IMG/VR virus record: IMGVR_UViG_3300020569_000004
Location: 1 to 47,229 of that record
From: a virus
Taxonomy: Duplodnaviria; Caudoviricetes
Reading direction: 5' to 3' (one strand)
Length of the DNA stretch: 47,229 bases
Below, piece by piece: positions 2,216 to 44,574 of this stretch. Every line of letters begins with the position of its first letter. The stretch's first letter is position 1. The notes below the pieces were generated by a model, which worked only from the letters and a program-made list of their open reading frames with translations, ran no database searches and was not told where the DNA came from. Made by a program: the position numbers and the translations under genes.

Positions 2216-2234
2216 CTCTACTTTAAGCAGTCAG

Positions 2235-2615
2235 TCAAACGTACTCTGTAACCTGAGCCGCACCATTCGCGCTAGCCCAAATACCATAAATAGTGTTGCC
2301 AAAAATTAACTGTTGATCAAACAGCCTAAATTCACCCGCCTGCATCTCAATAAAACAGTTTGCAACAGTTGCTGGATTTGAAAAGCTAAGATAAAGCTTT
2401 GAGGTGCTGATATTACTAATGGAAACCCCCTTCCTTGCCGTATTTGCAGCAAGAATCGGAACGCTGCTTGCATTGCTCGCAATACTCGTTGTCGCTGGAG
2501 CCCTGAGCGGGGAAGCGCTAAATTGATCAATCTTGATCTCGCCACTAGCGGTTACGCCAACAGGCTTATCTGCCCCATTTGGCCCCCTGCCAATCAGAAA
2601 AGCGCCCGCAGACAT
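2235..2615 (-). CDS. Virion structural protein (hypothetical)
   Basis: 126 aa, Ala/Ser/Thr-rich beta protein (ILAANTARKGVSISN..LYLSF) in the tail module. Confidence 0.55.
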   Translation of the reverse strand: MSAGAFLIGRGPNGADKPVGVTASGEIKIDQFSASPLRAPATTSIASNASSVPILAANTARKGVSISNISTSKLYLSFSNPATVANCFIEMQAGEFRLFDQQLIFGNTIYGIWASANGAAQVTEYV

Positions 2616-2660
2616 ACCCGTTCAGCTGCTACACACTCAATCTAGCGAGCCGCCCCAGGC

Positions 2661-2687
2661 AAAGAAAAACCCCTCCCGAAGGAGGGG
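2661..2687 (-). terminator. Intrinsic terminator after the tail tube gene
   Basis: Minus strand CCCCTCC-TTCG-GGAGGGG followed by TTTTTCTTT. Confidence 0.85.
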
Positions 2688-2708
2688 CCGGATGATCGCA
2701 AAGGATGA

Positions 2709-3461
2709 TCAGGACTTCACTAGATCGAAGACAGGAGCCTCCGAGGGGCGGAAATTGATCGAGATGGACTGGGCATCGTCAGGGTTGACGTTCAGGCTTG
2801 CAGAGGTCAGAACGATCTTGGTCTGGATCGAGCGGCTCAGGGGATCATTGAGGGTACCGCCGGAGAACACCTGATCGATGTAGAGCTTCACCGCAGCACC
2901 AGTTTGACGACGCTGAATCACGTCCTCGATCATGCGGTTGGAGATAGACTCTTCTTCGTCAGTGGTGTAGATAGTAGCGGTGCCACTGCCATCTGCAAAA
3001 CCAGTGACGTACTTGCGGAACGGTGCATACTGCCCAGTGCCCTGACCAATAGTGGTCACGTCGATCTCGGAGCGAGTGATTTCAAAGCTCCAATCACGAA
3101 CTTGCCCAACAACAGTGAACCCATTGTAAACAATCTTCGCCTTCGCCGCTCCAAAACCAGAAGGCTGAGCAGTAGCAGTTGCAGCGGTGCCACCGGCAGT
3201 AGAGCTAATCGTCATCACGCCCGTGGTCGGATCGTAAGTTTTGACGAAGTAGTTGCCAGCAGCAATTGCGTTGGTAACAGTTGCGCCCACCGGATAGCTA
3301 AGAGTGATCGGATCATTCACTCGAAAGCCGAGAAAAACGCCAACAGTGATGTTGGCCCCAGTGGCAGGAAAGGCGGTGGCGAGAAGACAGGCTTCAGTGT
3401 TGGCGGGCTTATAGTAAAAAGCCCCGGAAGTGCCGGTAAGCACCGTAGTGTCGCAAGTCAT
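2709..3461 (-). CDS. Major tail (tube) protein
   Basis: 250 aa; GQVRDWSFEITRSEIDVTTIG..GFADGSG..SASLNVNPDD..INFRP tube-like motifs; follows the tail terminator gene; has its own terminator. Confidence 0.8.
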   Translation of the reverse strand: MTCDTTVLTGTSGAFYYKPANTEACLLATAFPATGANITVGVFLGFRVNDPITLSYPVGATVTNAIAAGNYFVKTYDPTTGVMTISSTAGGTAATATAQPSGFGAAKAKIVYNGFTVVGQVRDWSFEITRSEIDVTTIGQGTGQYAPFRKYVTGFADGSGTATIYTTDEEESISNRMIEDVIQRRQTGAAVKLYIDQVFSGGTLNDPLSRSIQTKIVLTSASLNVNPDDAQSISINFRPSEAPVFDLVKS

Positions 3462-3525
3462 GATTGCTTTACACAGAACAGCAGTACGGGCACTGCCCGG
3501 TTACATTCAGAATAGCCGTAGCCGA

Positions 3526-4020
3526 TCACTCAGAGCAGGGCACCATGGCCTGCCAACCAGCAGAGATCTTGCCCATAAAATGAGGCGAATAAGACGAAAG
3601 AGATGGTTCAATTGATTCCGCTCTTTCCCTGATGAAATCCGGCCCCGTAATCGGCCCAGTCCTTACAAATACTTGATCCACGTTCTTCTTTGTCGCCCCA
3701 AGCTGAGTAATAACTTTTGCCGCAATGCCAATAAGCTCCTGGCATCTTGCAGGCCCGCCCCCAAGAGGAGCGAAACAGCGAACGATGAGAGCACCTCTCG
3801 CGTTTTTCACTGTTTGAGATATGCCTGACTCATTCATCAGCCCAAAGGTTAAGTTAACGCGAATGTATTCCTTCGGGGGGTCGGGCGGGACTGCTGTAAT
3901 GTTGTCAAAGTAGACCGGTACGGGCGGAACCTGAGAATTAAAAGCAGTCAGCAGAGGCGCCTCAATAGCAGCTCTGATGCGCTGATATTCCGTTAAGCCG
4001 TTAAGTATTTGATCTGGCAT
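3526..4020 (-). CDS. Tail terminator / tail completion protein
   Basis: 164 aa; VYFDN..P..YIRVNL..G.LIVRCFAP.G.G pattern; position directly before the tube gene. Confidence 0.65.
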   Translation of the reverse strand: MPDQILNGLTEYQRIRAAIEAPLLTAFNSQVPPVPVYFDNITAVPPDPPKEYIRVNLTFGLMNESGISQTVKNARGALIVRCFAPLGGGPARCQELIGIAAKVITQLGATKKNVDQVFVRTGPITGPDFIRERAESIEPSLSSYSPHFMGKISAGWQAMVPCSE

Positions 4021-4619
4021 CAGAACCTAACTCTGTCTGACTGAGAAAACCTAAAGCCCCGAGCAAGATCACCTTGCATGACGGACTGAACATAGGTCTC
4101 GAACCAGTCTTGCGGGGCGGTGATGGAAGAGCTGGCCTCCTCTCCGTAGCCAAGGTAGGCAATCTGGTAGCGCAAATGCTCTAGCTGACCATTTTCATCT
4201 CCCGGCCGAGGCCCCCCCTCTATCTGAGGCTTCAAGGGCTGACCAATCTGGTAAAAGGTCGCCTCTTCTTTGTCAATCGCAATATCAGCATGTGGAGCAG
4301 TATTGACTATTTCAAACTTAATGGAACGCCCCCCGCGATCCAGGGCTCTTTCAAACTTTCTAAGCTGAAAGTTTCTGTAAGTATATTCGTAAATACCATC
4401 CCCACCCCTGCCGCCACTCGGAGGCGTTTCCCCTGGAGCGACCACATACCAGGAACGAGAAAATTCGCCACTCCAGCCAGGGCCTGCATCAACAAGGCCG
4501 TTCACAATCTCAACAGCAGCATCACGAATCCCGCGAGAAATAACAGGAGTCAGGTCTCTCTGAACCTGTTTTGCAAGTCCCATCAGGGATCGCCTGGATG
4601 AAGCACTCCGCCTAGCCAT
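4020..4619 (-). CDS. Neck / tail completion protein (HK97 gp10-like)
   Basis: GP.WSGEFSRSW and I.NTAPHA motifs; synteny. Confidence 0.55.
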   Translation of the reverse strand: MARRSASSRRSLMGLAKQVQRDLTPVISRGIRDAAVEIVNGLVDAGPGWSGEFSRSWYVVAPGETPPSGGRGGDGIYEYTYRNFQLRKFERALDRGGRSIKFEIVNTAPHADIAIDKEEATFYQIGQPLKPQIEGGPRPGDENGQLEHLRYQIAYLGYGEEASSSITAPQDWFETYVQSVMQGDLARGFRFSQSDRVRF

Positions 4620-4996
4620 CAGCTCAACCTCCCAACAACTACATGCAGTATAGGATTATCCCCTCGATAGGACATAATGCCAACAATCTTCGCCGTTCTT
4701 TGCGCCCCATCTTGCAAATATCGCACAGAATCAGTAGTTCTCGGATAATACTCTCCGAGTGACGAAGCTGAGATCAGAATCTTCACATCTGTCATCTGAT
4801 AAAGCCCCTGCACCTCTTCCGGTCTGAGCTGAGTCGGGAGAAGCTTGATAGGAACCTCCGAATCACATCCCATCACCGTCCCGGTATATGGGTCATACTG
4901 CTGATTCTGAGATGACTTAATATAAGTGCCAGAAATTCCCCACTGAGCAATCAGCGGCCCCGGAATCTTCCCAAATACACGATCGGCAAGAGACAT
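4619..4996 (-). CDS. Head closure / head-tail joining protein
   Basis: 125 aa, YDPYTG and DVKILI motifs; synteny. Confidence 0.6.
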   Translation of the reverse strand: MSLADRVFGKIPGPLIAQWGISGTYIKSSQNQQYDPYTGTVMGCDSEVPIKLLPTQLRPEEVQGLYQMTDVKILISASSLGEYYPRTTDSVRYLQDGAQRTAKIVGIMSYRGDNPILHVVVGRLS

Positions 4997-5002
4997 AAGA
5001 AA

Positions 5003-5665
5003 TCAAAGAGGATTGCTGTACCAGCCCCCAGAGACCGGATAAACCATGCCGCCCGCAAAAGTTACACGTCGCCCCCTAAAAGCCCCAGCAGCGTAATACT
5101 TGTCAATTCTTGCAGAGCTATCTTTTGTAAGATGAGACTGATGAAAGCTACTATCAATGATATACTTTGAAAGAATATCCATCGCAAACGGTGGAATAAA
5201 CTCAAAGCCCGACTGCACCGTGTCTCGGTCTCGATATTTGACCTGAAGAGATCCGCTGCCGAGATTCACTTCATCATACTGATCGTTCTCTCTCAGCAAA
5301 ACACCCCCATCATTATCAGCCCCAATACCTGCGTAGCCCCCAGTTGTAGTAAGAAAGGCTGCCATGTAGGAGACAGCAATTTCAAAGTCAAGTGGAAGCT
5401 CGTCGCTCGGAAGAATTCGCCCATCGAGCTTCATGTATCGAGGCCATGCAAGAGACTGCTGAGGGTCAACCAAGGCCCCCTTCCACTTGAGAGGGTTGAT
5501 TGCCATTGTCGCCCCCACAAGCGTCTGCTCTTTTTGCTGATTGCCAAGAGCAAGCCAAGAAGCAATACCTGGACTTTGCGGCAAGTCAGAAAGAAGCGAA
5601 GTGGCCCTCGCTACACTCACGAAAGAATTGGCGTTAGACGCCCCAAGAGTGGAAACGAAGGCCAT
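5003..5665 (-). CDS. Head-tail adaptor (family often annotated as 'DnaT-like ssDNA-binding protein')
   Basis: ANSFVSV..A, WKG....QSLAWPR motifs; directly downstream of the capsid gene. Confidence 0.7.
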   Translation of the reverse strand: MAFVSTLGASNANSFVSVARATSLLSDLPQSPGIASWLALGNQQKEQTLVGATMAINPLKWKGALVDPQQSLAWPRYMKLDGRILPSDELPLDFEIAVSYMAAFLTTTGGYAGIGADNDGGVLLRENDQYDEVNLGSGSLQVKYRDRDTVQSGFEFIPPFAMDILSKYIIDSSFHQSHLTKDSSARIDKYYAAGAFRGRRVTFAGGMVYPVSGGWYSNPL

Positions 5666-5673
5666 TCACGCAA

Positions 5674-5907
5674 TCACTTAGAGGAAGTGACACCAGGGGC
5701 TGCTTTCACCTTAGCCGCAGAAGTGACAGGAGCTTTCGCCTGCACTGGCTTTGACTCAGCCGGTTTCGATTCAGCCGGAGGCTTGATCGAGCATTCAGCA
5801 ACAGGAGCCTCTTCTGCCGGAGACTCCACAGGCGAAACACTCTGCACCTTTTCTTGAGCTTTGCGCTCTTGCGCTTCACGAGCAAGACGGAAGGTAATCA
5901 TGGACAT
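5674..5907 (-). CDS. Small Ala/Pro/Lys-rich protein after the major capsid gene
   Basis: 77 aa; FRLARE N-terminus, low-complexity tail. Confidence 0.55.
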   Translation of the reverse strand: MSMITFRLAREAQERKAQEKVQSVSPVESPAEEAPVAECSIKPPAESKPAESKPVQAKAPVTSAAKVKAAPGVTSSK

Positions 5908-5927
5908 GGCTTGTTTTGCGATTGAGT

Positions 5928-5966
5928 AAGAAAAAGCCCCACCAGCATATTAAATGCCAGCGGGGC
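5928..5966 (-). terminator. Intrinsic terminator after the major capsid gene
   Basis: Minus strand GCCCCGCTGGCAT..ATGCTGGTGGGGC followed by TTTTTCTT. Confidence 0.85.
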
Positions 5967-5987
5967 CCAGCGGTAGTGCAACCGAAG

Positions 5988-6971
5988 TCACACGTAGCAA
6001 CGAAGCTGGGTCAAGCGAATGTTGCGGTCGTCCGTAAACACCTTGGACCAGTTGGCGCCAGTAGCAAGCTCAGTGTTACTGGGCGAGTTGCCGGCAGCAT
6101 TGCCAGTCCAGCTGATGCCGTTGGGATGCACCAGGTAGTGAGTACGGTTGATCAGGAAGTCAACGCCCTTCAGAGTGTCGCGATCGGTTTCCACCGGAGT
6201 CTTGGCAGGAGCAGTCGCATAAGCGAAAGCGCCAGGGCCAAAGAAATAGGTGTGATGAACATCGGTGCCACCAGTGCCGGCACCAGCATCGAAGGGGAGG
6301 GTGTCGTCCACGAACACGGGACGGCCTAGATAAGTACCTAGTTCAAGACGCTCGCGGGAGAGGCGGGTATCCAGCTGGCTGGTCTGGCTCGCAGGAACGA
6401 TCAGATCCAGGTTCATCAGTGCGTAATACACCGGGGAACGCATCAAAATGCCCGTCAGTTCCTGACCAGCGTCACCCAGCTTGGCGATACCGCTCACCAT
6501 AGCTGACTGGCTCAGGGCAGTAGAGGTGCCGCCAACGGCGTGACTGGTCGCCAGGGGACCCCCAGAGACAAACATGCCGCGCAGGATGCTGATCATGGTC
6601 TTCTGCATGTCCCGCACCCAATACTGACCAGTGCGACGAGCAATGGCCTGCATGGGGTCGGAACCAGCCAGCTCACCAGCCAGGTCGGAGGCGCTCCAGG
6701 CGCGGCCACGCACGTTGCGAACACCGGTCTGCAGGTCGCCAGCCAGCACCGAGGGGGTCAGGCCAACAGCGTCATTCAGGATCTCGGAATCGCCCGAGAG
6801 ATCGCCAAAGAAAGGAAGGTCGATGGTTTTGCCGCCTTTGGCGAACTCAGCCTGGATGGCATCATTCGTCACCATCAGGCCAGAATTGACCAGTTGGTTA
6901 CGGTCTTGAACCTCTTCCTGCTGGTATTCCAGGAAGAGCTGTGGGATAAAAGGAACACCAGCGAGCAGCAT
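5988..6971 (-). CDS. Major capsid protein
   Basis: GG.TIDLPFFGDL.GDSE, RGRAWSASDLA.ELAGSDPM.AI, TYLGRPVFVDD, PVETDRD, HPNGISW coat-protein motifs; ATG at 6971 preferred to the track's GTG at 7022. Confidence 0.9.
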   Translation of the reverse strand: MLLAGVPFIPQLFLEYQQEEVQDRNQLVNSGLMVTNDAIQAEFAKGGKTIDLPFFGDLSGDSEILNDAVGLTPSVLAGDLQTGVRNVRGRAWSASDLAGELAGSDPMQAIARRTGQYWVRDMQKTMISILRGMFVSGGPLATSHAVGGTSTALSQSAMVSGIAKLGDAGQELTGILMRSPVYYALMNLDLIVPASQTSQLDTRLSRERLELGTYLGRPVFVDDTLPFDAGAGTGGTDVHHTYFFGPGAFAYATAPAKTPVETDRDTLKGVDFLINRTHYLVHPNGISWTGNAAGNSPSNTELATGANWSKVFTDDRNIRLTQLRCYV

Positions 6972-7169
6972 GGCTTTAGCCTCAAAGAAAAGGGATTGTT
7001 GGAGCGTTTTCAGGTTCGGCACTGCCGACAGAGACGAGGGGCGTCAAACGCCAGCGCTCTCTCAAGACCCAAAGAAAAGATTGCGGTACTACCGCGAAAG
7101 CCTGCCCTCGAAGCACTGCAGCGAGGTTGCCTTACATCGTCACTATAGCAGCCAAATCAAGCAAGCAAC

Positions 7170-7191
7170 AAAAAACCCGGCAAAAGCCGGG
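7170..7191 (-). terminator. Intrinsic terminator
   Basis: Minus strand CCCGGC-TTTT-GCCGGG followed by TTTTTT. Confidence 0.8.
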
Positions 7192-7216
7192 CGAGGAAAG
7201 AGTTGCAGGCAAAAGC

Positions 7217-7507
7217 TCAAGCAGTGACATCCAGGGTCCAACCCTTGCCGGTAGCTACTGCTTTTTCGCCGGTCGTAACCGTAGCATTGCCGGTAGTGCC
7301 ACTGATGTCGAGGGTCTGGGTTCCGGTCACAGTAGGCAGACCAGCAAAAAGCTCGACAAGGTTGGCCCTTGTAAAAGCAGCGGGAATCACGTAGATGCTA
7401 CCACTTGCCATGCCGGCATCATAGGCAATGCGAAGAGCCGTAATCACTTCCTCAACGGCAGAAGTGATCTGCCTTCCAATCACATTGCGATCAGTTTTGT
7501 AGCTCAT
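7217..7507 (-). CDS. Small probable virion/capsid-associated protein
   Basis: 96 aa; own putative promoter and terminator; C-terminal LPTVTG.QTLDISG..AVATGKGWTL motif. Confidence 0.6.
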   Translation of the reverse strand: MSYKTDRNVIGRQITSAVEEVITALRIAYDAGMASGSIYVIPAAFTRANLVELFAGLPTVTGTQTLDISGTTGNATVTTGEKAVATGKGWTLDVTA

Positions 7508-7565
7508 GGTGCGTCTGAGTAGAGTGCCCTACATCAGAATAGCCATGACAGCCGAGGCCCTAGCC

Positions 7566-7757
7566 ATGCCCAAAAGAGAGTACAACACGGCTTACCGGGA
7601 GCCATGGAACGACTTTATTAGGGAGTCGCTAAAAGCGATTGATACCCATAATACAATATATTTTCAAACAAATAATATATGGCATCTGGAGAAAGCAAAA
7701 GAATTAAGAAAACATGTAACCGAATTAAAAGAAATGATTAAGAGGCAGGAGAGATAA
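7566..7757 (+). CDS. Conserved cyanophage-type hypothetical protein, antisense to the structural module
   Basis: MPKREYNTAYREPWN..LKAID.HN..YFQT...WHLEKA..LR..V.ELK resembles a small protein I recall from cyanophages. Confidence 0.65.
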   Translation: MPKREYNTAYREPWNDFIRESLKAIDTHNTIYFQTNNIWHLEKAKELRKHVTELKEMIKRQER

Positions 7758-8057
7758 AAGAAAAATCCATTTATATTTATCAGCCCACCAAGCAGCCGAC
7801 ATCCTCCCCTTTGCAATATTTTTAGCGTGGCGATCCTTCCAACCCTCGCGCCTAAGCCGATAGGCCCTTGATTCGTTTTTCTTTTTTGGAGAACCTTTTA
7901 CGCCTTGCTCTCCAAAGCGAATAAGCTTATACCTTCCGTCTTCTTTCGCCATTACGACATGAGACTTAGTTTTATGGCCGGGAGTTCTCTTGGGCTTATT
8001 CACCCCCGAAAGCCCAAGCTCTTTTATTTTGCTTTTAACTCTCTCTGGAACAGCCAT
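7725..8057 (-). CDS. Small basic conserved phage protein
   Basis: NKPKRTPGH.TKSHVV.AK....KLIRFG.QG..RH..NI.KG.MSAA.WA.K.KW motif, widespread in aquatic phages. Confidence 0.7.
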   Translation of the reverse strand: MAVPERVKSKIKELGLSGVNKPKRTPGHKTKSHVVMAKEDGRYKLIRFGEQGVKGSPKKKNESRAYRLRREGWKDRHAKNIAKGRMSAAWWADKYKWIFLLSLLPLNHFF

Positions 8058-8102
8058 GGCGAAAGCGTGCCTAATTCAGGCTAGCCAAAGCCTCATGAAC
8101 AG

Positions 8103-8357
8103 CTAACTCTTTTTTCGTTTATGGCGGTAGTCTATTCTTTTTGAACTTGTCTTTTTGCGCTTGAACTTTCTCTTCTCTTTTTCGGAAAGCTCTTTTGCGG
8201 TTTTTGGAGTCTCGGAAGAAACACGCTTGGACGGCCTGCAAGCAGGATAACTTCTACGCTTTTCGCCAGTCTTCCGCCCGCAAGGCTTCCCGGTCTTTAT
8301 GTCAACCCACTCCTCGGCAAACCAGCGACCAAGGCCGCCCCGACCACGCTCAGCCAT
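8103..8357 (-). CDS. Small basic conserved phage protein (DUF5872-like C-terminal part)
   Basis: GL.RWF.E.WVD.KTGKPCGR......YPACRPSKRVSS.TPKT motif; TGATG coupling to the upstream ORF. Confidence 0.7.
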   Translation of the reverse strand: MAERGRGGLGRWFAEEWVDIKTGKPCGRKTGEKRRSYPACRPSKRVSSETPKTAKELSEKEKRKFKRKKTSSKRIDYRHKRKKS

Positions 8358-8521
8358 CACCCGCCCCCTTTAGAGGTTTTGTACTTTCCCCCTCGCCTCT
8401 TGTATTCACGAACAAGCCAGCCACTCGCATAGGCGCTCGGGAAAACAGCGAACTTACGCTTAGCTTCGGCCTTGACACGGGCATAAAGAGATTTGTTCGT
8501 TGGAATATTCTTCGCTCTCAC
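8357..8521 (-). CDS. Small basic protein, 54 aa (DUF5872-like N-terminal part)
   Basis: Not in the ORF track; manual translation MRAKNIPTNKSLYARVKAEAKRKFAVFPSAYASGWLVREYKRRGGKYKTSKGGG; GTGA/TGATG coupled on both sides. Confidence 0.75.
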   Translation of the reverse strand: MRAKNIPTNKSLYARVKAEAKRKFAVFPSAYASGWLVREYKRRGGKYKTSKGGG

Positions 8522-8664
8522 TTCTTCTTGCCCTTCTTTTTGCGAGACTTCTTGGCAGTAGAAAGAGCAATTGCAACCGCCTGCTTTTGGGGACGCCCCT
8601 CCTTCCTCAGCTTTTCAATATTGTAAGAAACCGTAGCCCCAGACTTCCCCATTTTCAAAGGCAT
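8518..8664 (-). CDS. Small basic protein, 48 aa
   Basis: Not in the ORF track; MPLKMGKSGATVSYNIEKLRKEGRPQKQAVAIALSTAKKSRKKKGKKK matches the common phage 'PLKKG..NI..EG.PQKQAVAIAL' peptide. Confidence 0.75.
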   Translation of the reverse strand: MPLKMGKSGATVSYNIEKLRKEGRPQKQAVAIALSTAKKSRKKKGKKK

Positions 8665-8687
8665 GACATCAAAGCATCTGCTTACAC

Positions 8688-8716
8688 AATAAAGCCCCCT
8701 CCGGGGGAGAGGGGGC
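8688..8716 (-). terminator. Probable intrinsic terminator
   Basis: Minus strand GCCCCCTC..GAGGGGGC followed by TTTATT. Confidence 0.65.
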
Positions 8717-8732
8717 GGGGAAAAGAATTAGC

Positions 8733-9023
8733 TCAGAAGAGAGCAATCAAAAAAAGAAGGAAAAGCGCTAAAAGCAAAGTAAAAATTGCAATCAGTGGAG
8801 AGGATTCATTTCTCGCTTGATAGACAGGCCTGCTTTCACGAGGAACAGGAGACGAGACCGGTTGAACAGAAGAAGGCATGGAGGGAGAAGCAGAATAACT
8901 TCTGGTTCTCGCATAAGAACGTGTTGAAGAAGAGGCAGCACGGCGGCTTCTGTAACCCCCGCGAGACCACTTCGCAACAGTTCTGCGCCCATACCTTCTG
9001 TTGTAGCGAAATTCGCTTCTCAC
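8733..9023 (-). CDS. Hypothetical Arg/Ser-rich protein with C-terminal transmembrane helix
   Basis: 96 aa; abuts the scaffold stop; hydrophobic end LIAIFTLLLALFLLFLIALF. Confidence 0.4.
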   Translation of the reverse strand: MRSEFRYNRRYGRRTVAKWSRGGYRSRRAASSSTRSYARTRSYSASPSMPSSVQPVSSPVPRESRPVYQARNESSPLIAIFTLLLALFLLFLIALF

Positions 9024-9929
9024 TCAACCAAGCACACCACTCATTGCCCTTCCCACGGTCGGATCAAGCTTGCCAGCAGCACGAGCTTCACGGTAGAGCC
9101 GTGCAGCTTTTTCCTTTTGCCCCGAGTTAATCATTTCTGCAACGAGAGTTGCGTTCACCGACCCAACAGCAAATGGGTTGTTCGCAGAGGTGTAAGCAGG
9201 AGCGCGAGACGGAGCCATGCCAGAGCCCGTAGCCCCGGAACCATTGAAGTAAATAGAGTAGTCGTCATCCTCACGAAGCTTGCTCACGGCATCCTTGAGA
9301 GACACCGGATCGTCCTGGGGCCCATAAACAACCGTCTCCTCGTCTTCAAGCAAACGGAAATCCTCCCTCTTGAGCTTGAACAAATGCCCCGGCTTCCGAC
9401 AATCAACACGAGCCAGCTCGTCCATCACCTTCTGCTCAAGCAGAGTTGCGCGGCGGCTCTCGCGCTCACGATCGCGCTCCTGCTCGGCCTGGATGATCCG
9501 CTTGTTCTGCTCCTCCAACCGGCGCTTCAGCGAGGCCATCTCCGCCTTCACAACCGTGTCCACGGCATCAGAGGGGTTGGTGTAGACCTGCTGCCCTTGG
9601 GGCTGCTGCTGCCCCCCCTGGGGCTGCTGCTGACCATTCTGGGACTGGCTCCCGCCAGCGCCGCCGCCCTCGCCTTCCTCGCCCTCCTCAGAGGCATTCG
9701 CGGCCTTCAGTGCCAACACCTTCTCGGCGATCTCTTCGTCGCTCATGTCAGGTGTCAGCTCGATGCCAGCCACTTTCAGGAAGGTAGCGATCTGCTTGCG
9801 CTTCTTGAGATCGCCCTGCAGGCCTTCCTTCGTGGCCTTCAGCTTCGTGTTTTCGGTCTCCAGAGCGTTGAGCCGCTCCTCAAGCGACTTGAAAGCACTG
9901 TTTGCCTCGTCGAGAGTCTCAAAAGCCAT
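9024..9929 (-). CDS. Capsid scaffolding protein
   Basis: Coiled-coil, acidic/Gln-rich linker, GATGSG..NNPF C-terminal motif; between portal and capsid genes. Confidence 0.75.
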   Translation of the reverse strand: MAFETLDEANSAFKSLEERLNALETENTKLKATKEGLQGDLKKRKQIATFLKVAGIELTPDMSDEEIAEKVLALKAANASEEGEEGEGGGAGGSQSQNGQQQPQGGQQQPQGQQVYTNPSDAVDTVVKAEMASLKRRLEEQNKRIIQAEQERDRERESRRATLLEQKVMDELARVDCRKPGHLFKLKREDFRLLEDEETVVYGPQDDPVSLKDAVSKLREDDDYSIYFNGSGATGSGMAPSRAPAYTSANNPFAVGSVNATLVAEMINSGQKEKAARLYREARAAGKLDPTVGRAMSGVLG

Positions 9930-9960
9930 ACGGAATTGTTGTCGGTGAAAGAACTATAGC

Positions 9961-11685
9961 TCAAGCCTCGCTTGGCTCAAACCCCGGCTCCGAGACTTCT
10001 CTGTCGGCGCCCTCACTCATTGGGGTTGTGTTGTCTACTTCAACGCGGGGGCGAGAAGATCGCCCATCGGCAGAAGCCCCTTCGCGAGCCCCCATCAGCT
10101 CCCTGATAGTCTCAGTGCCCTTCAGTCCCATCTTTTCGATAATGTCGGAGACACTGAAGCCAGGAATGCCCTCAAAAAGCTCCCCGCTCTCAAGCATACG
10201 CATGAACAATTCAATAGTTATCACCCCATCCTTGAACAGAGAGCTGTAAGCCATTACCTGCTGCGAGTGCAGTTTAACAGGAATGAAGTTCTTGCTAATT
10301 ACAATCTTGACCGCAGAGTAGTTTCTGTAAGCCGCAGCATACATAAGCGCCCTGTTCAAGGCATCTTCAAGCGACTGAACGAGAACTGCAAGCTGAGAAT
10401 CACTCTGAGAGCGGTCAAGAAGCTTCGCAAAGCCGGATTCAGCCTGCGTTTTGCCCGTTGTCATTGCAACTGCGGCCAATCGCTCCATTGATTTCTCAAT
10501 TCTGTCAAGATTTTTAAGTGTAACTTCTGCCCCCTCCATGCTTGCGCTGATCATCCCGAACCTTGCATCAGGATTTTGCGAAGAAAGCGTTCGCCCCGAC
10601 CCCGCCTTAACCTCATCGTCGGGACGGACGCCCGTCATTGTCAAAAAGGGCGAGGCTGTAAGGTGGATTGACTCTGCAAGGTCAGCGGAAACCGCCCAAT
10701 GATGCAGATTTAGCCGCGCAATATCAAGAAGAAGGGGGCGAGCACGGAAAAATGCCTCTTTTTCACCCCCAAGAACGGGTACAAACGGGATAAATGGAAT
10801 AGAGAGATACCTTTCCTCCCCTTCTTGAACATACCTATCGGTATTTCCGGGCACATTTTGCTTCACATACGTCCTGCAGCGAACTCTGCGCCCAGGAGGC
10901 ACGAAGCGAAGCGTGTCATTCACCTCGGAAAAGCTATCTTCCCCAATTTCTACGATGTCATAAACGAAAACAGCGGGCAAAACTTCTTCAAAAAACTCAT
11001 TTGTGGCACTTTTTCGGCGAATTTCCCCCTTAATACGCAAATACGTGGGGAAAGAGCCAAAGAGTGACCGCCCCAAGATCTCTGCACTGAAAATATCGTG
11101 CCTACATTCAAGCACTTGGTCGCACTTGATCAAGACAAGGTAGGGGCGAGGGTTGAGAATTTTTTCCTCTTCTGCACTGAGGTCAGTAGGGAGCTTCGGA
11201 TATTCGACCCAAATACCTGCAACGCCCGCGTCAATGGCTGCCGTAAAAAGCTCTTTGGTGTACGAGGTTAAAGAATGCCCCTCAAGATCGCAATCTTCAA
11301 AAAAATTGCCCCACGACTCATCAATATTTTCGGGAATTACGACGCCCTTGCGAAGAGCCGTACCAATTGTAAGGTTGCGAAGATGCGAATAAAAAGGCTC
11401 GAAGCTGCTTTGCGCCCTGGTTTTGCGAACATCGTAGGATTCCACCTCCTCAAGATGATCCTTGGGGATATATTCGCTAGTCGCTTCGTACAGGAAGAAC
11501 TCGGGCAGGGTGCAAAACTTGATCGGAGACAGCCTTTCCAGCTGCTGAGCCTGCTCGATCGAGTATTCAGCAACGCCCGTAACCCCCTCAACATTCGCTT
11601 CCAGCTCTGGGTGCCGCCGGTCAAACGGATTCAGCCCCAGGGCGTCATCAGCATTTGGGATCAGAGAGTTACCGACGATGACCAC
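9961..11685 (-). CDS. Portal protein (DUF4055-like)
   Basis: 574 aa after TerL; DCDLEG.SL, G...I.VEYP, RPYLV, IPFVP, PLLLDIARLNL.H, AES...K.LDRSQ.DS.L motifs. Confidence 0.85.
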   Translation of the reverse strand: MVIVGNSLIPNADDALGLNPFDRRHPELEANVEGVTGVAEYSIEQAQQLERLSPIKFCTLPEFFLYEATSEYIPKDHLEEVESYDVRKTRAQSSFEPFYSHLRNLTIGTALRKGVVIPENIDESWGNFFEDCDLEGHSLTSYTKELFTAAIDAGVAGIWVEYPKLPTDLSAEEEKILNPRPYLVLIKCDQVLECRHDIFSAEILGRSLFGSFPTYLRIKGEIRRKSATNEFFEEVLPAVFVYDIVEIGEDSFSEVNDTLRFVPPGRRVRCRTYVKQNVPGNTDRYVQEGEERYLSIPFIPFVPVLGGEKEAFFRARPLLLDIARLNLHHWAVSADLAESIHLTASPFLTMTGVRPDDEVKAGSGRTLSSQNPDARFGMISASMEGAEVTLKNLDRIEKSMERLAAVAMTTGKTQAESGFAKLLDRSQSDSQLAVLVQSLEDALNRALMYAAAYRNYSAVKIVISKNFIPVKLHSQQVMAYSSLFKDGVITIELFMRMLESGELFEGIPGFSVSDIIEKMGLKGTETIRELMGAREGASADGRSSRPRVEVDNTTPMSEGADREVSEPGFEPSEA

Positions 11686-11801
11686 TGTTTCTTCGCAGCA
11701 CTATTCACACTCTAACAGCAGAAAAAGCTTCGCAGTTGGGGGCGGGAAAGACCAAAAATGTCGGGGGCGCAAAGGAAAATCAGGGGGCAAGAAAATGCAA
11801 A

Positions 11802-13205
11802 CTATCTCCAACGCTGCCCTCGCCCAAGCCCAATCGACGGCCTTGGCATTGTTTGCCAAACGAGATACCTCAAGGCATCACCAAAGTGAGAATAGTCCAA
11901 TTTTCCACCTTTTGATGGCTTCAGAGAACTATCATAGCCCCAGTTTTCTAGCATTTCTACAGATTCGTGGCACGAGGAACAGTTGATAAAAATCTGCCCC
12001 TTATTAAAGCAATTATTTGCGTGCCCCACAGTTTCTGCGATTGGTGGATTTCGACGCTCGGCTATAACTTTCGCCCCCGTCTCTCTCAAGATGTCGTGAT
12101 CACTCATGGTGGACGACGTGCTAGCATGTGACCCCGAGCTATCAGGGTAAATCATCACCATGTTTCTTGCGACATGAGCAGCGTATTTCCGCTTGATATG
12201 CTCCGCGAGCGAAAAAGTGTCCCTAGAAATGTTCTCGTCAAATATGTGCAAGGCCTGGCCCCCAGAAGGCAGGGGGCGCATAACAGCATAAACACTCGAC
12301 ACCTTGCCCACGTTGAAGTCGCACCCAATGAGGATTGGCTCGCCAGCTTCGGGGCAGAAGATATTTGTAAAGTGCTTGTCTCTCTCAAACTCGCTAAATA
12401 CAGTCGTCGTCTCAAGATTAACAAACTCGCCCTTCACGTAAGCATCAACCAGATTTGAAGGGTATTTCTCCAGCAAGTCTTTGACGTAATTTTCATCGAG
12501 GTAGGGATTGTCTCTGGTATCAGCTCTATAAAGTTGCTTATCATCGCTTTTATTTTTCTCAAAGAAGCCCCAAATAAACTTCCGCCCCTCCGGCGTAGAT
12601 ACAAAACAAATCTGCGGACAATTACCTACACGAACCCGCCCCTGCAGTTTGACCAGGGCCGCCTCGGCAACCTCCTGCTTGACCGTATCCGCCTCGTCAA
12701 TGACCAGGGAGGCGGCGTTGATGCCCACCAGGCGCTCCACGTTCATGAGGGGGCGGAGAAGGATTGTGGTGTCCCCCTCGGGTAGGTGCAGGGTGTAACT
12801 GGGCTGAGGAGAGACTCGGTGCGTGAAAGGAATATCGTATTTATGAAGAAATGAGTTCCACGTAGGAATCGCGATGTCGTTCAACATCACGTAGGTGGGC
12901 TCAAGATAAATGTGAGTATGCCCCTGACTCCTAAAAGCTAAAAGTATTGCCTTGGCGACACTGCTATAAGACTTTCCTGAACCCAATCCACCCACGTAAA
13001 GGATATACCTTGTATCGAAATTGCAAACAAAATCTTTTTGGTGCGGCAGCAGATCTGCAACAATTCGATCTTCGATCTCGTCTACGCTCAGAGCATTGTT
13101 GTTTTTTCTTTTTAATGCCTTGAGCATTGACGTATCATGAAAAAGCCCGAGCGACTGCAGAGCTGCTCTGTCTGCGTATCTTGCGCTGCGGGCTTTTGCT
13201 GGCAC
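11802..13205 (-). CDS. terL: Terminase large subunit
   Basis: LLPHQ Q-motif, Walker A GGLGSGKS, Walker B LVIDEA, STPEG, DNPYL, nuclease IGCDFN and HFGDALRY. Confidence 0.93.
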   Translation of the reverse strand: MPAKARSARYADRAALQSLGLFHDTSMLKALKRKNNNALSVDEIEDRIVADLLPHQKDFVCNFDTRYILYVGGLGSGKSYSSVAKAILLAFRSQGHTHIYLEPTYVMLNDIAIPTWNSFLHKYDIPFTHRVSPQPSYTLHLPEGDTTILLRPLMNVERLVGINAASLVIDEADTVKQEVAEAALVKLQGRVRVGNCPQICFVSTPEGRKFIWGFFEKNKSDDKQLYRADTRDNPYLDENYVKDLLEKYPSNLVDAYVKGEFVNLETTTVFSEFERDKHFTNIFCPEAGEPILIGCDFNVGKVSSVYAVMRPLPSGGQALHIFDENISRDTFSLAEHIKRKYAAHVARNMVMIYPDSSGSHASTSSTMSDHDILRETGAKVIAERRNPPIAETVGHANNCFNKGQIFINCSSCHESVEMLENWGYDSSLKPSKGGKLDYSHFGDALRYLVWQTMPRPSIGLGRGQRWR

Positions 13206-15148: not shown

Positions 15149-15223
15149 AGCAGACCCACGGTAACTAACACTTAGCAGACCCACGGTAACTAACACTTAG
15201 CAGACCCACAGTAACTAACACTT
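15149..15223. repeat. 3 x 25-bp tandem direct repeat AGCAGACCCACRGTAACTAACACTT
   Basis: Units at 15149, 15174 and 15199; one mismatch. Confidence 0.95.
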
Positions 15224-15267
15224 AGCGCGGCTTGTGAACATAACAAATAAGATAAGACTTCCAGGCT

Positions 15268-15558
15268 ATACTTTACACTTAACTTGTTTAATACTTTATA
15301 CTTAACTAATTGATACTTTACATTTAGTATTTGCTATACTTTATATTTAGCTGTTTGATACTTTATACTTAGCAAGTTGATACTTTATATTTAGCTAGTT
15401 GATACTTTATACTTAACAAACTCTGATACTTTATATTTAGTAGATTGCTATACTTTAGACTTAATTTGTTTAATACTTTATATTTAGCAAACTTGTTTAC
15501 TTTATACTTAACTTGTTTGATACTTTATACTTAGTAGGTTGCTATACTTTATACTTAG
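15268..15558. repeat. 13-unit AT-rich iteron-like array, core ATACTTTATAYTTAR, 22-24 bp period
   Basis: Cores at 15268, 15291, 15313, 15336, 15358, 15380, 15402, 15426, 15450, 15473, 15497, 15520 and 15544, separated by 7-9 nt variable linkers. Confidence 0.95.
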
Positions 15559-15616
15559 CATTACACCTAAACTATAACACCAACTTAAACAGTAAGCAAA
15601 CAGAAGCCCCAGCTTA

Positions 15617-22210: not shown

Positions 22211-22564
22211 TTACTCGTAGTGGGGCCTTTCTTCAGGGAAAGGCTTAGCAAAATCCTCCTCGAAGTAACTCACAAAAGAGTTGTCCTGCTGGTAGGTACT
22301 TGGGGTGTCTGAGCCAAGCACAAATGTGTAACCGCCGTAGCCAGTATCTTTTGGCGTTGGCGGCTTACCATTCGTGTAGGCTATTGTGGCTTTGCTTCTC
22401 AGCTCATGCCGCTCTTCGCTTGGGACTCTCTCAAAAAAATCCTCAAGGTCTTCGTCTGAGTAGAAAACCGATTGAACTGGTGTTCCACAAGTAAACCACC
22501 ACCCTCCTTCTTCTGGGCCACCGTAAGCTTCCCAGGTTTCGTAAGTGTTGAGATAGACAGTCAT
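22211..22564 (-). CDS. Conserved phage hypothetical protein
   Basis: Y....AYGGPEEGGWW motif and P..FPEERPHYE C-terminus; CAGATC-ATG start. Confidence 0.75.
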   Translation of the reverse strand: MTVYLNTYETWEAYGGPEEGGWWFTCGTPVQSVFYSDEDLEDFFERVPSEERHELRSKATIAYTNGKPPTPKDTGYGGYTFVLGSDTPSTYQQDNSFVSYFEEDFAKPFPEERPHYE

Positions 22565-22617
22565 GATCTGAAAAGATAAAGTGCTTGATTTGATTTGACT
22601 TGCGAGGCTCCCGCTAT

Positions 22618-22956
22618 TCATCCATAAACAATTTCGCCGAAACAAGCAATTTGACAAATCACATCAGCAGCATCTGCATCAATATCGGAATAATCCCCAA
22701 AGACGGCAGATTCAATTGAGCGTCGAATGTCTCTTCGGCAATCAACCCGCCTGGCGAAGATTGAGGCGACAGCCTCCTCAGCCGCTTGCTGAGTAATTAC
22801 ATGCTGGACAGACTCCTCATCAATAATCATGTAAACACGGTCCTCCCTGTTGACATGTCCAGACTTCGCCCAATAGCCAATGGAATATCCGGCGGTATCG
22901 CAAATACCCTCGAAGTCGTCCCAGGAAATTTTGAAGTCTAAGGTAATGAGAGTCAT
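22618..22956 (-). CDS. Hypothetical protein, paralog 1 of a tandem pair
   Basis: ISWDDFE.ICDTAG..I.YWA...IDADAAD.I.Q.ACFGEIVYG. Confidence 0.8.
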   Translation of the reverse strand: MTLITLDFKISWDDFEGICDTAGYSIGYWAKSGHVNREDRVYMIIDEESVQHVITQQAAEEAVASIFARRVDCRRDIRRSIESAVFGDYSDIDADAADVICQIACFGEIVYG

Positions 22957-23009
22957 GATCTGAAAAGATAAAGTGCTTGATTTAATTTGGCTTGTGAAAC
23001 TATTGCTAT

Positions 23010-23354
23010 TTACCCATAAGCAATTTCTCCAAAGCAAGCATACTGAAAGATGATACTAGCATCCTCTGCATCAATTTCACTGTATTCATTTTCGAGTACC
23101 GCAAGTTCGATAGACTTCCACGTTGCCTCAATGCAAAACTTCTTGCGATTGAAGAGATCAGCAATAACCTTCTCGACCATTGCCTGAGAGATGTGATGAT
23201 GCGTCAACTCCTCGTCCACAATCGTGAACATTCGATCCTGTTTGTTGATGTGCCACTTGTGGGCCCACCCGTCGATACCGCCGAAGCCAGCGGTGCAGCA
23301 AAGATCCTCAAAATCATCCCAAGAAATTTTGTAGTCCAGAGAAATAAGAGCCAT
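23010..23354 (-). CDS. Hypothetical protein, paralog 2 of a tandem pair
   Basis: ISWDDFE.LC.TAG..I..WA...IDAEDAS.I.Q.ACFGEIAYG. Confidence 0.8.
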   Translation of the reverse strand: MALISLDYKISWDDFEDLCCTAGFGGIDGWAHKWHINKQDRMFTIVDEELTHHHISQAMVEKVIADLFNRKKFCIEATWKSIELAVLENEYSEIDAEDASIIFQYACFGEIAYG

Positions 23355-23391
23355 GGCTTGAAAAGCGTGGGGGGCGGAAATTAAATAGAAA

Positions 23392-29321: not shown

Positions 29322-29801
29322 TTAACCGAGATGCCTGCGCTTCAGAAGTCTGTCGTACAAAACAACATTAACCGAAGCTGCAAGATTCATGCAGTGATTT
29401 GTTGGAACGTAAACAATGTCACGACAGCGATCTGTTATTTTGCGCCCCAGGCTTGAGTCTTCGGGGCCGAAAATATAGAAAGCTCGCTCGGGGTGAACAT
29501 AATCGCAAAGAGACCTTGCGCCCTCAATGAGATCAACCGCAACGGGGACGGCATCATAAGGAATGACACCAAACAGATCATCTGTCTGCAAAGTTGGAAT
29601 ATGCCTCCAGGCTTTTGTGACATCCGAATGCTGCCTTTTCATCCTTGTGCCAGAAATAGCAACAAGAGAAGCGTCGTAACAATGAGCCGCTCTAAGAACT
29701 CCACCAAAATTGATCGAGTTCTTTGGGGCGAAAAGACCAATAGAAGCATAACCTCTTGGCTTGGTAAAAGAAGAAGCGGTCTGAAGAAGAGTTGCTGTCA
29801 T
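29322..29801 (-). CDS. SpoU/TrmH-family (SPOUT) RNA methyltransferase
   Basis: PKNSINFGGVLRAA (motif 1), YIFGPED (motif 2), VP...CMNLAASVNVVLYD (motif 3). Confidence 0.85.
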   Translation of the reverse strand: MTATLLQTASSFTKPRGYASIGLFAPKNSINFGGVLRAAHCYDASLVAISGTRMKRQHSDVTKAWRHIPTLQTDDLFGVIPYDAVPVAVDLIEGARSLCDYVHPERAFYIFGPEDSSLGRKITDRCRDIVYVPTNHCMNLAASVNVVLYDRLLKRRHLG

Positions 29802-36708: not shown

Positions 36709-37175
36709 GTGGAAGAAAGAGAAAGAAGTTTTTGATCAGCCATCATGTTGGCTTGCGAGACAATCTCTGCAAACTTTTCGCCCCCAAGAGCATCCTTTGC
36801 GAGAGAGGCAATTTCCCGCTGAAGCAGCAAATCCCTCTTTTGTTTGAGCGCCCCAATGCGAAAACTAATCTCCCTGGAAACCGCTTTACCGAAAAAGATA
36901 AGAACGAAACGCTTGAAGGCATACCGTTTATGAGCATCCTTCCAGTCGTGAAAAGGATCTATGCGCTCAATGTAAGAGTTGACATCAGAATGAAACCCCT
37001 GCAAAGCATGTTGAGCGTCAATCTCAAGTCTTAACTTCTTGAGGTCATCAATGTGCATTGAAAGAATGTCCTGCAATGCAACTTCTCTATCGAGATAGCG
37101 AGAACGAAAGAAAAGCTCTCGCTTGTCCTCAAACTCAGGTTCACTCAGCCAGCGTTCGTCCTGTACGTTTTTCAT
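36705..37175 (-). CDS. Hypothetical protein (resembles 45811-46464)
   Basis: Helical 156 aa; C-terminal ..LGGEKFAEI..QA vs ..MGCERVAEI..EA. Confidence 0.6.
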   Translation of the reverse strand: MKNVQDERWLSEPEFEDKRELFFRSRYLDREVALQDILSMHIDDLKKLRLEIDAQHALQGFHSDVNSYIERIDPFHDWKDAHKRYAFKRFVLIFFGKAVSREISFRIGALKQKRDLLLQREIASLAKDALGGEKFAEIVSQANMMADQKLLSLSST

Positions 37176-37522
37176 GCAGTTTCGATAAGTCGTCGAGTTT
37201 GAAATAGATCGTCATTTTGACAGATGGCAGTCAAGCTCGGGAGGCAGACCACACGGAACCCAACGATGCTGCAGGCGCTGACGGGCAGGAGGTGGTCGCG
37301 GTAGGCCGAACGGCAGTCCCTAGGGAGGTCGCTCCAGGAGCCGCCGCGCAGCAGCTTGAAGACAGGCCTTGCAGCTTTTGTTTTTTCAGATAAACAAGCC
37401 ACACGGAACCCAACGAAGTAGCTGGCATTGACGGGCCGGAGGTGGCTGCGGAAGGCCGAACGGCAGCTCCCGGGGAGGCTGAACCAGGAGCCGCCGCGCA
37501 GCAGCTTTGCTTGTAAAGCCAT
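37172..37522 (-). CDS. Protein consisting of two tandem FGE/CLec C-terminal (DGR variable-repeat-like) segments
   Basis: KLLRGGSW..P..CRSA.R....P....VGFRV.C twice; ATG begins after a 2-nt gap following the stop of the FGE N-terminal gene. Confidence 0.8.
   Translation of the reverse strand: MALQAKLLRGGSWFSLPGSCRSAFRSHLRPVNASYFVGFRVACLSEKTKAARPVFKLLRGGSWSDLPRDCRSAYRDHLLPVSACSIVGFRVVCLPSLTAICQNDDLFQTRRLIETA
37249..37357 (-). repeat. Variable-repeat-like copy VR2
   Basis: 109 bp, 18 mismatches to VR1, 16 of them at codon positions 1-2; ~69% GC. Confidence 0.85.
37399..37507 (-). repeat. Variable-repeat-like copy VR1
   Basis: 150-bp period; no indels relative to VR2. Confidence 0.85.
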
Positions 37523-37524
37523 CT

Positions 37525-38046
37525 TCAGGAGCCCTCGTAATCGCTCAGGCACCACTCATAGACATTGCCATTCATGTCTTTCAGTCCCCATGGATTTGAA
37601 GGAAAGGAGCCGACGCGGCTAGTTGAGTTGCTATCGCAATTTGCCTTGGAGTTGTCAAATTCATCGCCCCAAGGATAATCTGTATCCGTCCCCGCCCGAC
37701 ACGCATACTCCCATTGCTCCTCAGTGGGCAGTGTGTATGTTTTGCCGGTAGCCGTGCTCAGGCGGTTGCAGAACTCCATGGCTTGATACCAGTTGACAGA
37801 TTCAACTGGCAAGTCATCTCCGGTGAAATGCGACGGATTTTCTGGAAGGTCAATCTCGACCCTGGGAAGGTTCGTAGCAACATATCGCCATTGAGCCTGA
37901 GTAATTGGCGTCTCCCCAATTTCAAAGGCATCAACATGGACCTCTCGCTTCGAGTCTTTCGGGCCCATGAAATAATTGCCACCTGGCACTGACACCATTG
38001 GGAAAGAAACGGGCGCTGGAATGGCGTGATCGTTTTTGCTGAACAT
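37525..38046 (-). CDS. FGE-sulfatase/SUMF1-type CLec domain lacking its C-terminal segment
   Basis: MV.VPGG.Y.MG, F.IG.TPITQAQW, PVE.VNW..A..FC.RLS, LPTE.QWEYACRAGT, N.WGL.DM.GNV.EWC, then stop; first gene after cassette P8. Confidence 0.9.
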   Translation of the reverse strand: MFSKNDHAIPAPVSFPMVSVPGGNYFMGPKDSKREVHVDAFEIGETPITQAQWRYVATNLPRVEIDLPENPSHFTGDDLPVESVNWYQAMEFCNRLSTATGKTYTLPTEEQWEYACRAGTDTDYPWGDEFDNSKANCDSNSTSRVGSFPSNPWGLKDMNGNVYEWCLSDYEGS

Positions 38047-38071
38047 GTGACGTAGATAAAGCAGATTAACG

Positions 38072-38143
38072 AAAAAGTGAAGGCACTGCGCCCTCACTGA
38101 TTTAATGATACCACTTTGAGGGCGGTTTGTCAAGCACAAATAA
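38072..38143 (-). promoter_or_regulatory. Early promoter-stem-loop cassette P8
   Basis: TTGACA (38133-38128), 17 bp, TATCAT (38110-38105); hairpin AGTGAGGGC-GCAGT-GCCTTCACT followed by a U-tract. Confidence 0.85.
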
Positions 38144-43731: not shown

Positions 43732-44574
43732 ATGACACTTTTTCTCGCAAGGTTTGAAGAATTTCGCACTCTCTACGAAAGAGAGCCAGCCTACAGGAGT
43801 CAAGCCTGTGACTTGATTTACCTGAGCGAGCCATTCAACGAAATCTGTGTCGAAAAAGAAGACTGGGACAGCTCGATTGCTCACGGTAATTCGCTTGAGG
43901 TTCAAGGCATGGCAGGGGGGCATATAACAAAAGAAATCATTCCGCAAATGCTCAATCTTTCCAAAACATTAAATCACAGGGTTCACGCAAACCTGAACGG
44001 AGTCGTGACAGGGGTATGGGCGGACGACACAGTTCAAACAGCCATTGAGCGGTATGAAACTCTGCGAAAAGCGGAGGCAAAAGCCGCTGAAGCCAGACGC
44101 AAAGTGTACGAGGCATCGCCGGAATACGCAGCCGCTCAGGCAGCCGCAAAGGCCAAGCAAGAGGCTGAAGACAAGCGACGCCAAGAATTGCTCTCCCTCG
44201 CCCCCGATGGCCCCACATTTACCGATCCAGAGGGCTGGAAGAAAGCCGTGGAGAACAACACCGACCCCTATGGCGCAGCCACCGTTTCCTATGCAAACAT
44301 GTGGGCGCAAATGATGGAGGGGCTAATCAATCAAGGATCTGCGCTCAAGGATATTGCAGAAGAGTGCAGCTATCTTGCTGATACGGAAGGCATCACGGGA
44401 TTCATGTACGGCTGTGCCGTATCAATTCTCTCGCAGTGCTGGAAATACGGGAGTGATCTCAACGCCTGGCACAATGGCAAATACGGGGACCAAGGCGAGG
44501 AAGCAACAAAAAGTGGGGGCACGATTAACCCTGCAGTCCTGACGATGACCATTGCCCCAGCGCCTTCCGCCTAA
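43732..44574 (+). CDS. Conserved phage hypothetical protein
   Basis: N.DPYG....YA..WA.MME, ADTEGITGFMYGCAVSILSQCWKYG..L..WHN, G.INPAVL motifs. Confidence 0.8.
   Translation: MTLFLARFEEFRTLYEREPAYRSQACDLIYLSEPFNEICVEKEDWDSSIAHGNSLEVQGMAGGHITKEIIPQMLNLSKTLNHRVHANLNGVVTGVWADDTVQTAIERYETLRKAEAKAAEARRKVYEASPEYAAAQAAAKAKQEAEDKRRQELLSLAPDGPTFTDPEGWKKAVENNTDPYGAATVSYANMWAQMMEGLINQGSALKDIAEECSYLADTEGITGFMYGCAVSILSQCWKYGSDLNAWHNGKYGDQGEEATKSGGTINPAVLTMTIAPAPSA

Follow-up and report, generated by a model that had tools for sequence, protein, structure and literature searches.

How does a phage in which no DGR reverse transcriptase (RT) has been found come to carry repeats that look as if such an enzyme had written them, and why do these repeats lie on a small gene of their own, behind a CLec scaffold that stops short of them? 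The question is raised by a cassette at 37172-38046 of a linear virus record of 47,229 bp (G000), which is estimated to be 60% complete and the whole of which is called the window here. An earlier note, based on the DNA letters, had described the cassette as a split DGR-type target, one scaffold with two hypervariable tips. All features of the cassette, its promoter region included, are on the minus strand.

The split gene pair and its slot

The scaffold (ORF1; 37525..38046, 173 aa) is an FGE-type CLec protein without the C-terminal variable segment. It matches Pfam FGE-sulfatase with an E-value of 3.9e-36 over profile positions 5-194 of 255, and its tail reads NGNVYEWC-LSDYEGS, that is, seven residues beyond the motif and then the stop. 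The mini-protein (ORF2; 37172..37522, 116 aa; alleles P0002, P0004-7, P0009 and P0185) starts after a gap of 2 nt and holds the two variable repeats, so that the ORF coordinates bear out both the end just past NGNVYEWC and the separate 116-aa ORF described earlier. Both proteins match the same PHROG (18508), of which ORF2 covers positions 223-263 of 266. The further claim that the missing C-terminal part is encoded twice in ORF2 stands for the repeats but not for the linker between EWC and RGG, which measures 28-54 residues in intact relatives and is also absent here. At the junction (37508..37540), which keeps a remnant of a YEGAPxDG linker, 2 nt are missing with respect to a host gene. This loss yields the stop of ORF1 and, right behind it, the ATG of ORF2, which arises from the old Asp-Gly codons, and APEDG is still legible in the third frame. 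The split thus began as a frameshift and has persisted through a divergence of the scaffold of up to 17%. A programmed -1 frameshift was rejected, the 36-nt overlap having no canonical slippery heptamer (X XXY YYZ), although fusion at a low level may still occur.

The end point of the scaffold has been found to be conserved. Contigs of four runs (X4, X5, X6, and X8) bridge the stop without differences, and 20/20 close scaffolds (83-100% identity, the window's included) end after EWCL with YEGS, YEDFRA or HEGLSR; this alignment comprises 19 members of the three closest clusters plus the window protein, and some of its rows are the window's own sequence. The largest scaffold cluster had 15 of its 17 members among those listed, and the search covered proteins of 95-303 aa, a range that would include the fused form. 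Of 472 scaffold homologs, the best 120 were compared; the nearest two (84 and 87%) have their stop at the same place, and by a motif rule the 120 fall into 76 with a C-terminal repeat, 12 that stop within 12 residues (window protein included) and 32 others, many of them with N-terminal repeats. An assembly error or a recent pseudogenisation at the stop, the accidents on which the earlier note thought its reading might founder, can therefore be set aside, since the contigs of the four runs and all the close scaffolds carry the same end point. Related-locus searches returned no loci closely related to the scaffold or to the downstream gene.

Head, connector and terminase genes lie at 1-13205, about 24 kb from the cassette, which is thus placed outside the tail module, as had been proposed, and lacks the tail-module location of Mtd-type targets. 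Upstream of the scaffold, where the earlier note had placed a promoter, there is indeed a sigma70-like sequence (TTGACA-17-TATCAT with TG, 11/12; 38105..38133), one of nine copies of the motif. The site predates the cassette and aligns in G026, a syntenic phage whose slot is taken by another gene. The labels "early" and "strong" may well apply to it, as its consensus and, by analogy, a relative suggest. Along 20241-40353 (minus strand), the nine sigma70-like copies, 1.5-3.7 kb apart, split the region into small modules. Just after the predicted transcription start, a hairpin of 10 bp followed by a T run (38076..38098) resembles a terminator, and a similar sequence is present in G026; five terminator-like hairpins were found against 2.7 expected in shuffles, an excess that is weak alone.

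In G026, an unrelated 124-aa gene (locus L143) occupies the place, with the neighbours and the promoter that the cassette has here. The 3' end of that gene aligns with the C-terminal tail of ORF2 (37172..37225); this tail is likely what remains of the 3' end of the gene that formerly filled the slot. In contigs of X8 and X10, position 38074 is joined to 37225 with other letters in between, 119 nt in X8 and 308 nt in X10, the latter fitting equally well a scaffold-less allele or a different resident gene as in G026. From the synteny with G026 and these joins, the cassette likely replaced most of a resident gene. Related phage contigs either lack it or have it replaced, and it is likely an accessory element in a replaceable gene slot. 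Elsewhere in the window, a 280-aa ORF (43732-44574, plus strand) matches Pfam Tad4, a type I Thoeris inhibitor, in its C-terminal part with an E-value of 2.8e-28, and a SpoU-family RNA methylase (29325-29801, minus strand) is encoded amid small non-structural genes.

Variable repeats, alleles and cyanobacterial templates

Repeat 1 (37399..37507; 69% GC, GC3 0.89) and the core of repeat 2 (37357-37249) are 109 bp each, align without gaps and lie 150 bp apart; identity of repeat 2 (37239..37357; 70% GC) to the template extends 10 nt beyond that of repeat 1. An AT-rich, phage-specific spacer (37358..37398) separates them, and related spacer peptides are found in the alleles. The repeats, at 69-70% GC, contrast with the scaffold (51%), the spacer (39%) and the window (48%). 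They differ from each other at 18 positions, distributed 8/8/2 over codon positions 1/2/3; the count, the absence of indels and the codon pairs listed in the earlier note were all reproduced. This bias (16/18) is weak alone (p=0.03); it is when the repeats are set against a real template that the statistics become strong. The window holds no third copy, its next best site agreeing at 43 of 91 invariant positions, and a template inside the window was rejected. Neither can one repeat be the template for the other, since the mismatches are not adenine in either copy.

When genome_contigs was scanned with a pattern modelled on the expected template, 14 template loci were obtained, all in cyanobacterial MAGs, most of which are named Cyanobium, Synechococcus or their families. 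The RT motif set is full in the fetched flank of 9/14 of them and partial in one. The best of these 14 loci, all retrieved with this purpose-built pattern, is L033. Over the 106 nt compared, 25 of them A, it shows 18 mismatches with repeat 1, of which 17 fall on template adenines (hypergeometric p 9e-13), and 16 with repeat 2, of which 15 do so (p 7e-11); one non-adenine mismatch is left for each repeat. The template sequence predicted in the earlier note is thus present in L033 nearly letter for letter, and its proposal that both repeats come from one template type is supported. The 14 picocyanobacterial templates leave 1-14 non-adenine mismatches (median about 5-6), whereas 20 template-like sites taken from other cyanobacteria leave 13-29; in this latter control, a looser pattern matched 24/401 cyanobacterial genomes, and 20 of 28 sites were compared. 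L033 itself has an Avd-like ORF (below cut-off), but neither the 2.9-kb contig of this locus nor its MAG yielded an RT. The Avd-like ORF (1982-2599 of L033) continues in frame into the template, and the locus is possibly a deleted DGR.

The A-rich template near an RT or Avd, for which the earlier note had proposed a search, therefore exists in picocyanobacterial MAGs, with RT, but was not found in the phage. Judging from these comparisons, the tips are almost certainly real and DGR-written, and they most likely stem from a host template. The host would then be a DGR-bearing picocyanobacterium, to which the template match, the lake and freshwater labels of the runs and a Kyanoviridae gp96-like gene all point. 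A capsid search among named phages gave matches of about 38% identity and no clue to the host.

The alleles of the mini-protein carry the same signature. Among 63 homologs, six share its flanking peptides and, together with the window's own, make seven proteins with 13 repeats. In these, adenine-codon positions are changed in 137 of 195 cases (133 reachable by adenine changes alone) vs. 3 of 260 other positions; the comparison, anchored on the RGGSW motif, was made at the protein level because the DNA of the alleles was not recovered (tail-pattern scans gave no viral match, and only L061, a contig as long as the window). All listed alleles are in frame, with one (P0009), two or three (P0185) repeats. 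The second repeat of P0006 resembles the first half of the second repeat of P0185 followed by the last half of its third repeat, so recombination that is independent of RT would add diversity; in fact, repeat copies appear to recombine, their number varying from 1 to 3. Six scaffold entries and the mini-protein alleles sit on contigs of equal size, which suggests, at the level of contig sizes and not of DNA, that they are neighbours. In the contigs of X4, X5, X6, and X8, the repeats are identical to those of the window wherever covered, contigs being known to drop rare variants. Contig depth is lower over the cassette than over its flanks, a figure that is not usable as a share of genomes. No RNA data set was listed among those that contain the stretch, which weighs in neither direction.

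Phage relatives and the predicted domain

Repeats of this kind have a wider distribution among viruses. Other viral records hold intact genes, tandem genes, N-terminally shifted repeats, scaffolds that are cut here too, free-standing ORFs with 1-4 repeats, and arrays that are out of frame. A comparison of L033 with 44 repeats from the window and these loci, each 95 nt long, showed 686 of 1100 adenine sites changed vs. 501 of 3080 others; repeats of other lengths are left out of this count, and several of those included derive from other templates. Among the arrangements, L046 1495-3277 (G015) and L049 1054-3145 (G010) show out-of-frame repeat arrays behind one scaffold, like silent recombination cassettes. 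L047, L048, L053, L054, and L058 contain circularly permuted CLec genes, with one to four N-terminal repeats and none at the C-terminus. In L055 1118-2738 (G002), the split is independent, the end of a shrunken scaffold overlapping the first of four two-repeat ORFs, and the template type is another one.

Among 50,697 named phage records, the mini-protein matches nine, all of them Microcystis phages or Cyanophage MaMV-DH01. For example, gp062 of Ma-LMM01 (L144 1790-2620) is an intact FGE/CLec relative whose tip differs from template L154 at 21 adenines and 3 other sites; L154 comes from a cyanobacterium and belongs to a different lineage than L033. Another example is L145 1349-2629, with FGE/CLec genes of cultured Microcystis phages whose tips match templates, MaMV-DL02 having two short ones in tandem. 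No RT was found in the four cultured Microcystis phage genomes tested (0/4). Genes gp062 and ORF63 of MaMV-DC are annotated as kinase or hypothetical. In Ma-LMM01, gp062 is one of the early genes of the cluster gp054-gp063, an assignment confirmed by qRT-PCR, and no homologs of these genes are reported in the accessible text of that study (PMC5780444). Both genes resemble the cassette in being cyanophage FGE/CLec genes with a template-matching tip, no RT found in the genome and early expression, which for the cassette is a prediction, but they are intact single genes with one repeat and another template lineage, and the text available for PMC5780444 makes no link to DGRs. The tips of MaMV-DC and CH01 are identical although 18 other sites in the gene differ; rewriting is therefore not frequent there either.

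With respect to structure, the scaffold and the first repeat were modelled as one domain with a score of 0.95, the best control reaching 0.00, as would be expected if, in line with the structure prediction suggested in the earlier note, the two pieces rebuild the CLec fold. The runs of the complex share at least 95% of contacts, the pLDDT of the partner is at least 84, and that of the scaffold drops from 90 to 66 with unrelated partners; the mark used for the model was reached by 51/78 solved and 2/108 mismatched pairs. Among solved structures, TvpA of Treponema denticola (2y3c, E 1.9e-20) and PvdO (5hha, E 1.9e-38) come closest to an intact host target. Since such intact relatives are solved, split halves are apt to pass through likeness, and the model shows likeness, not binding. 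The tip is predicted to complete the scaffold. The RGGSW...GFR segment of the cassette aligns with the C-terminus of TvpA; TvpA and PvdO are single chains, whereas the chain of the cassette is cut before this segment. For the cassette protein, all NCBIfam scores of the enzymatic FGE-fold families (FGE, PvdO, EgtB, and GldK) are far under the cut-off. Each repeat holds one constant core Cys (CRSA), at a place where FGE has a catalytic Cys pair.

Source of the tips and candidate role

Somewhat better than an even chance is given here to the reading that the accessory cassette encodes a scaffold and tips rewritten by the DGR of the host, which would dock into a likely early intracellular binder. 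In this mechanism, the host would supply the DGR, its picocyanobacterial template and RT acting during infection, and mutagenised host cDNA would recombine into the phage repeats through their constant ends of 20-25 nt, without the host 3' tail. Recombination between copies would alter repeat number and shuffle halves. Both ORFs would be translated, coupled across the 2-nt gap, and one tip would complete one scaffold, with two specificities or a two-headed complex as the result. As to the entry route, host targets share a pyrimidine-rich 3' tail, presumably the IMH, which is absent after both phage repeats; homing by the host's own signal is therefore doubtful. Recombination of cDNA via the constant ends would be the simplest route, by analogy with DGRec (10.1101/2025.03.24.644984), an engineered system in which host-made mutagenic cDNA rewrites a gene of an infecting phage in an IMH-free manner, and in which phage lambda was mutated. 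DGRec is, on the other hand, artificial and requires a supplied single-strand annealing protein, and no recombinase or annealing protein was recognised among the 73 proteins of the window.

As for the role, counter-defence would be the most likely one by analogy, the product serving perhaps as a decoy for, or a rival to, the CLec sensors that the host itself diversifies through its DGR. This is favoured by the SAV_2336 N-terminal domains of host target genes (2/4 over cut-off), by the proposal that DGR-linked FGS domains are conflict sensors (PMC7159879, PMC10907252), and by the Tad4-like protein of the window. A more general version, in which lake cyanophages are parasites of a DGR-based "adaptive immunity" of their hosts, carrying targets only and having host RT and template rewrite them during infection, the CLec gene being a scaffold plus a library of interchangeable tips that jams host sensors early, and gp062 being the first cultured example, is conceivable and must be regarded as tentative.

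The main rival, rather unlikely but the strongest of the alternatives, is that the repeats were captured and not homed; they would have been DGR-mutated within host genes, would have reached the phage by ordinary recombination with repeats of the host chromosome and would then have been shuffled among the phage copies, and the split protein might still work. Copying at the DNA level is suggested by an ORF in another phage fragment (L029 3807-4334, G005), which holds an unmutated template-like copy (0/25 adenines changed) beside a mutated repeat, lacks the host template flanks and lies on a 27-kb fragment in which no RT was found. The chimeric repeat of P0006 indicates that RT-free recombination occurs, and the missing host 3' tail and the stable allele of the X4/X5/X6/X8 contigs are likewise in accordance with capture. 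However, the 13 different repeats of the seven alleles would demand many independent double crossovers in arms of about 20 nt, and no contig with host context was identical to either repeat among the pieces listed at 92% likeness, a search of low power.

It is improbable that the phage has a DGR of its own (RT, Avd and template) in the unassembled 40% of its genome, which would make the cassette an ordinary remote target, unusually split. This reading draws on the incompleteness of the record and on phage DGRs with a distal second repeat, as described in PMC12629997. It is opposed by a series of searches. No RT was detected in G000, either with a host RT query, which matched 2/3 host genomes as a control, or among the window proteins. 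The same query found none in 15 viral records with 2-8 repeats each (0/6 of those at least 90% complete), these being what was left of 19 contigs after removal of 4 whose match was no repeat. Pfam RVT_1 was absent from 21 capsid relatives (0/4 of the complete ones), the longer 21 of 79 capsid-related loci, and the repeat was likewise found in 0/21. One of them, G019, is 88-92% identical to the window over most structural genes and reaches about 44 kb past its left end, without RT. It stops short of the right end, and with the genome 60% complete a gap remains, so that the absence of RT is not final; joining G019 to the right end of the window in order to cover the genome failed. A template-type scan of viral_contigs gave a single match, whose 27-kb fragment has no RT, and no Avd match was obtained among the 73 window ORFs in PHROGs nor among the window ORFs scanned in Pfam. 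The cassette works like a remote DGR target and yet is no DGR; neither RT gene nor template repeat was found in the element (the window being 60% of the genome), and the repeat, which lies on a separate ORF, does not end a CLec chain as in single-chain targets.

Less likely again is that the tips act alone, as dominant-negative peptides displacing the C-terminal strands of host CLec proteins, with the scaffold as a chaperone or dispensable. Free ORFs of 1-4 repeats do outnumber scaffolds in L047, L048, L054, L055, and L060, some of them beside scaffolds with an N-terminal repeat; nevertheless, the scaffolds of this lineage, at 83-100% identity, have stayed intact and seem to accompany the alleles, and tips that displaced only constant strands would not need varied binding residues. 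Finally, neutral debris, that is, a frameshifted pseudogene whose repeats are passively overwritten through likeness to abundant host cDNA, is very improbable, since, although the split started as a small deletion and related phage contigs lack the cassette or have something else in its place, the reading frame of 20/20 close scaffolds runs on to one common point, where three different ends occur, the listed alleles are in frame, and independent splits and permutations occur in other phages.

The preferred reading, rewriting by the host DGR, finds its nearest parallel in cells. Cyanobacterial and clade-5 cellular DGRs have FGE-type CLec targets and remote targets (PMC7517822, PMC10907252, PMC7159879), which resemble the cassette in template backbone, adenine signature, CLec family and distance from the RT. 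The remote targets described there, however, are located in the genome of the RT itself and end an intact CLec domain, whereas the cassette belongs to a phage in which no RT was found, and its repeats form a separate gene, in tandem and without the host 3' tail. BPP-1 and other phage DGRs (PMC12629997) also have a phage gene with a CLec variable repeat, but they have an RT and a template of their own and mostly vary tail proteins, and the cassette lies amid small non-structural genes behind a sigma70-like promoter. Surveys of DGRs start from the RT and, by the statement of the largest of them, miss remote targets (PMC8144416); RT-less phage targets are therefore invisible to them. In the passages covered from open papers, neither RT-less phage targets of cellular DGRs nor split CLec targets are described. 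What is new is the allele series in one slot, the conserved split together with its origin, and the early-gene relative in culture.

If host DGRs do rewrite genes of lytic phages, hypermutation would cross the boundary between host and virus in nature, and the immune role proposed for cyanobacterial DGR targets would gain a viral counterpart. A split CLec protein with swappable tips would amount to a natural modular binder, and the cultured pair of Ma-LMM01 and Microcystis lets the function of cyanobacterial DGR targets, long an open matter, be tested directly. Three minor features of the window may also be recorded. The intergenic stretch at 15149-15560 contains AT-rich tandem repeats of 22-25 nt, like the iterons of an origin; tandem paralogous small genes are located at 22556-23365, two of which belong to PHROG 2355; and a long ORF of the tail region, at the left end of the contig, includes four repeats of 159 nt (967-1602).
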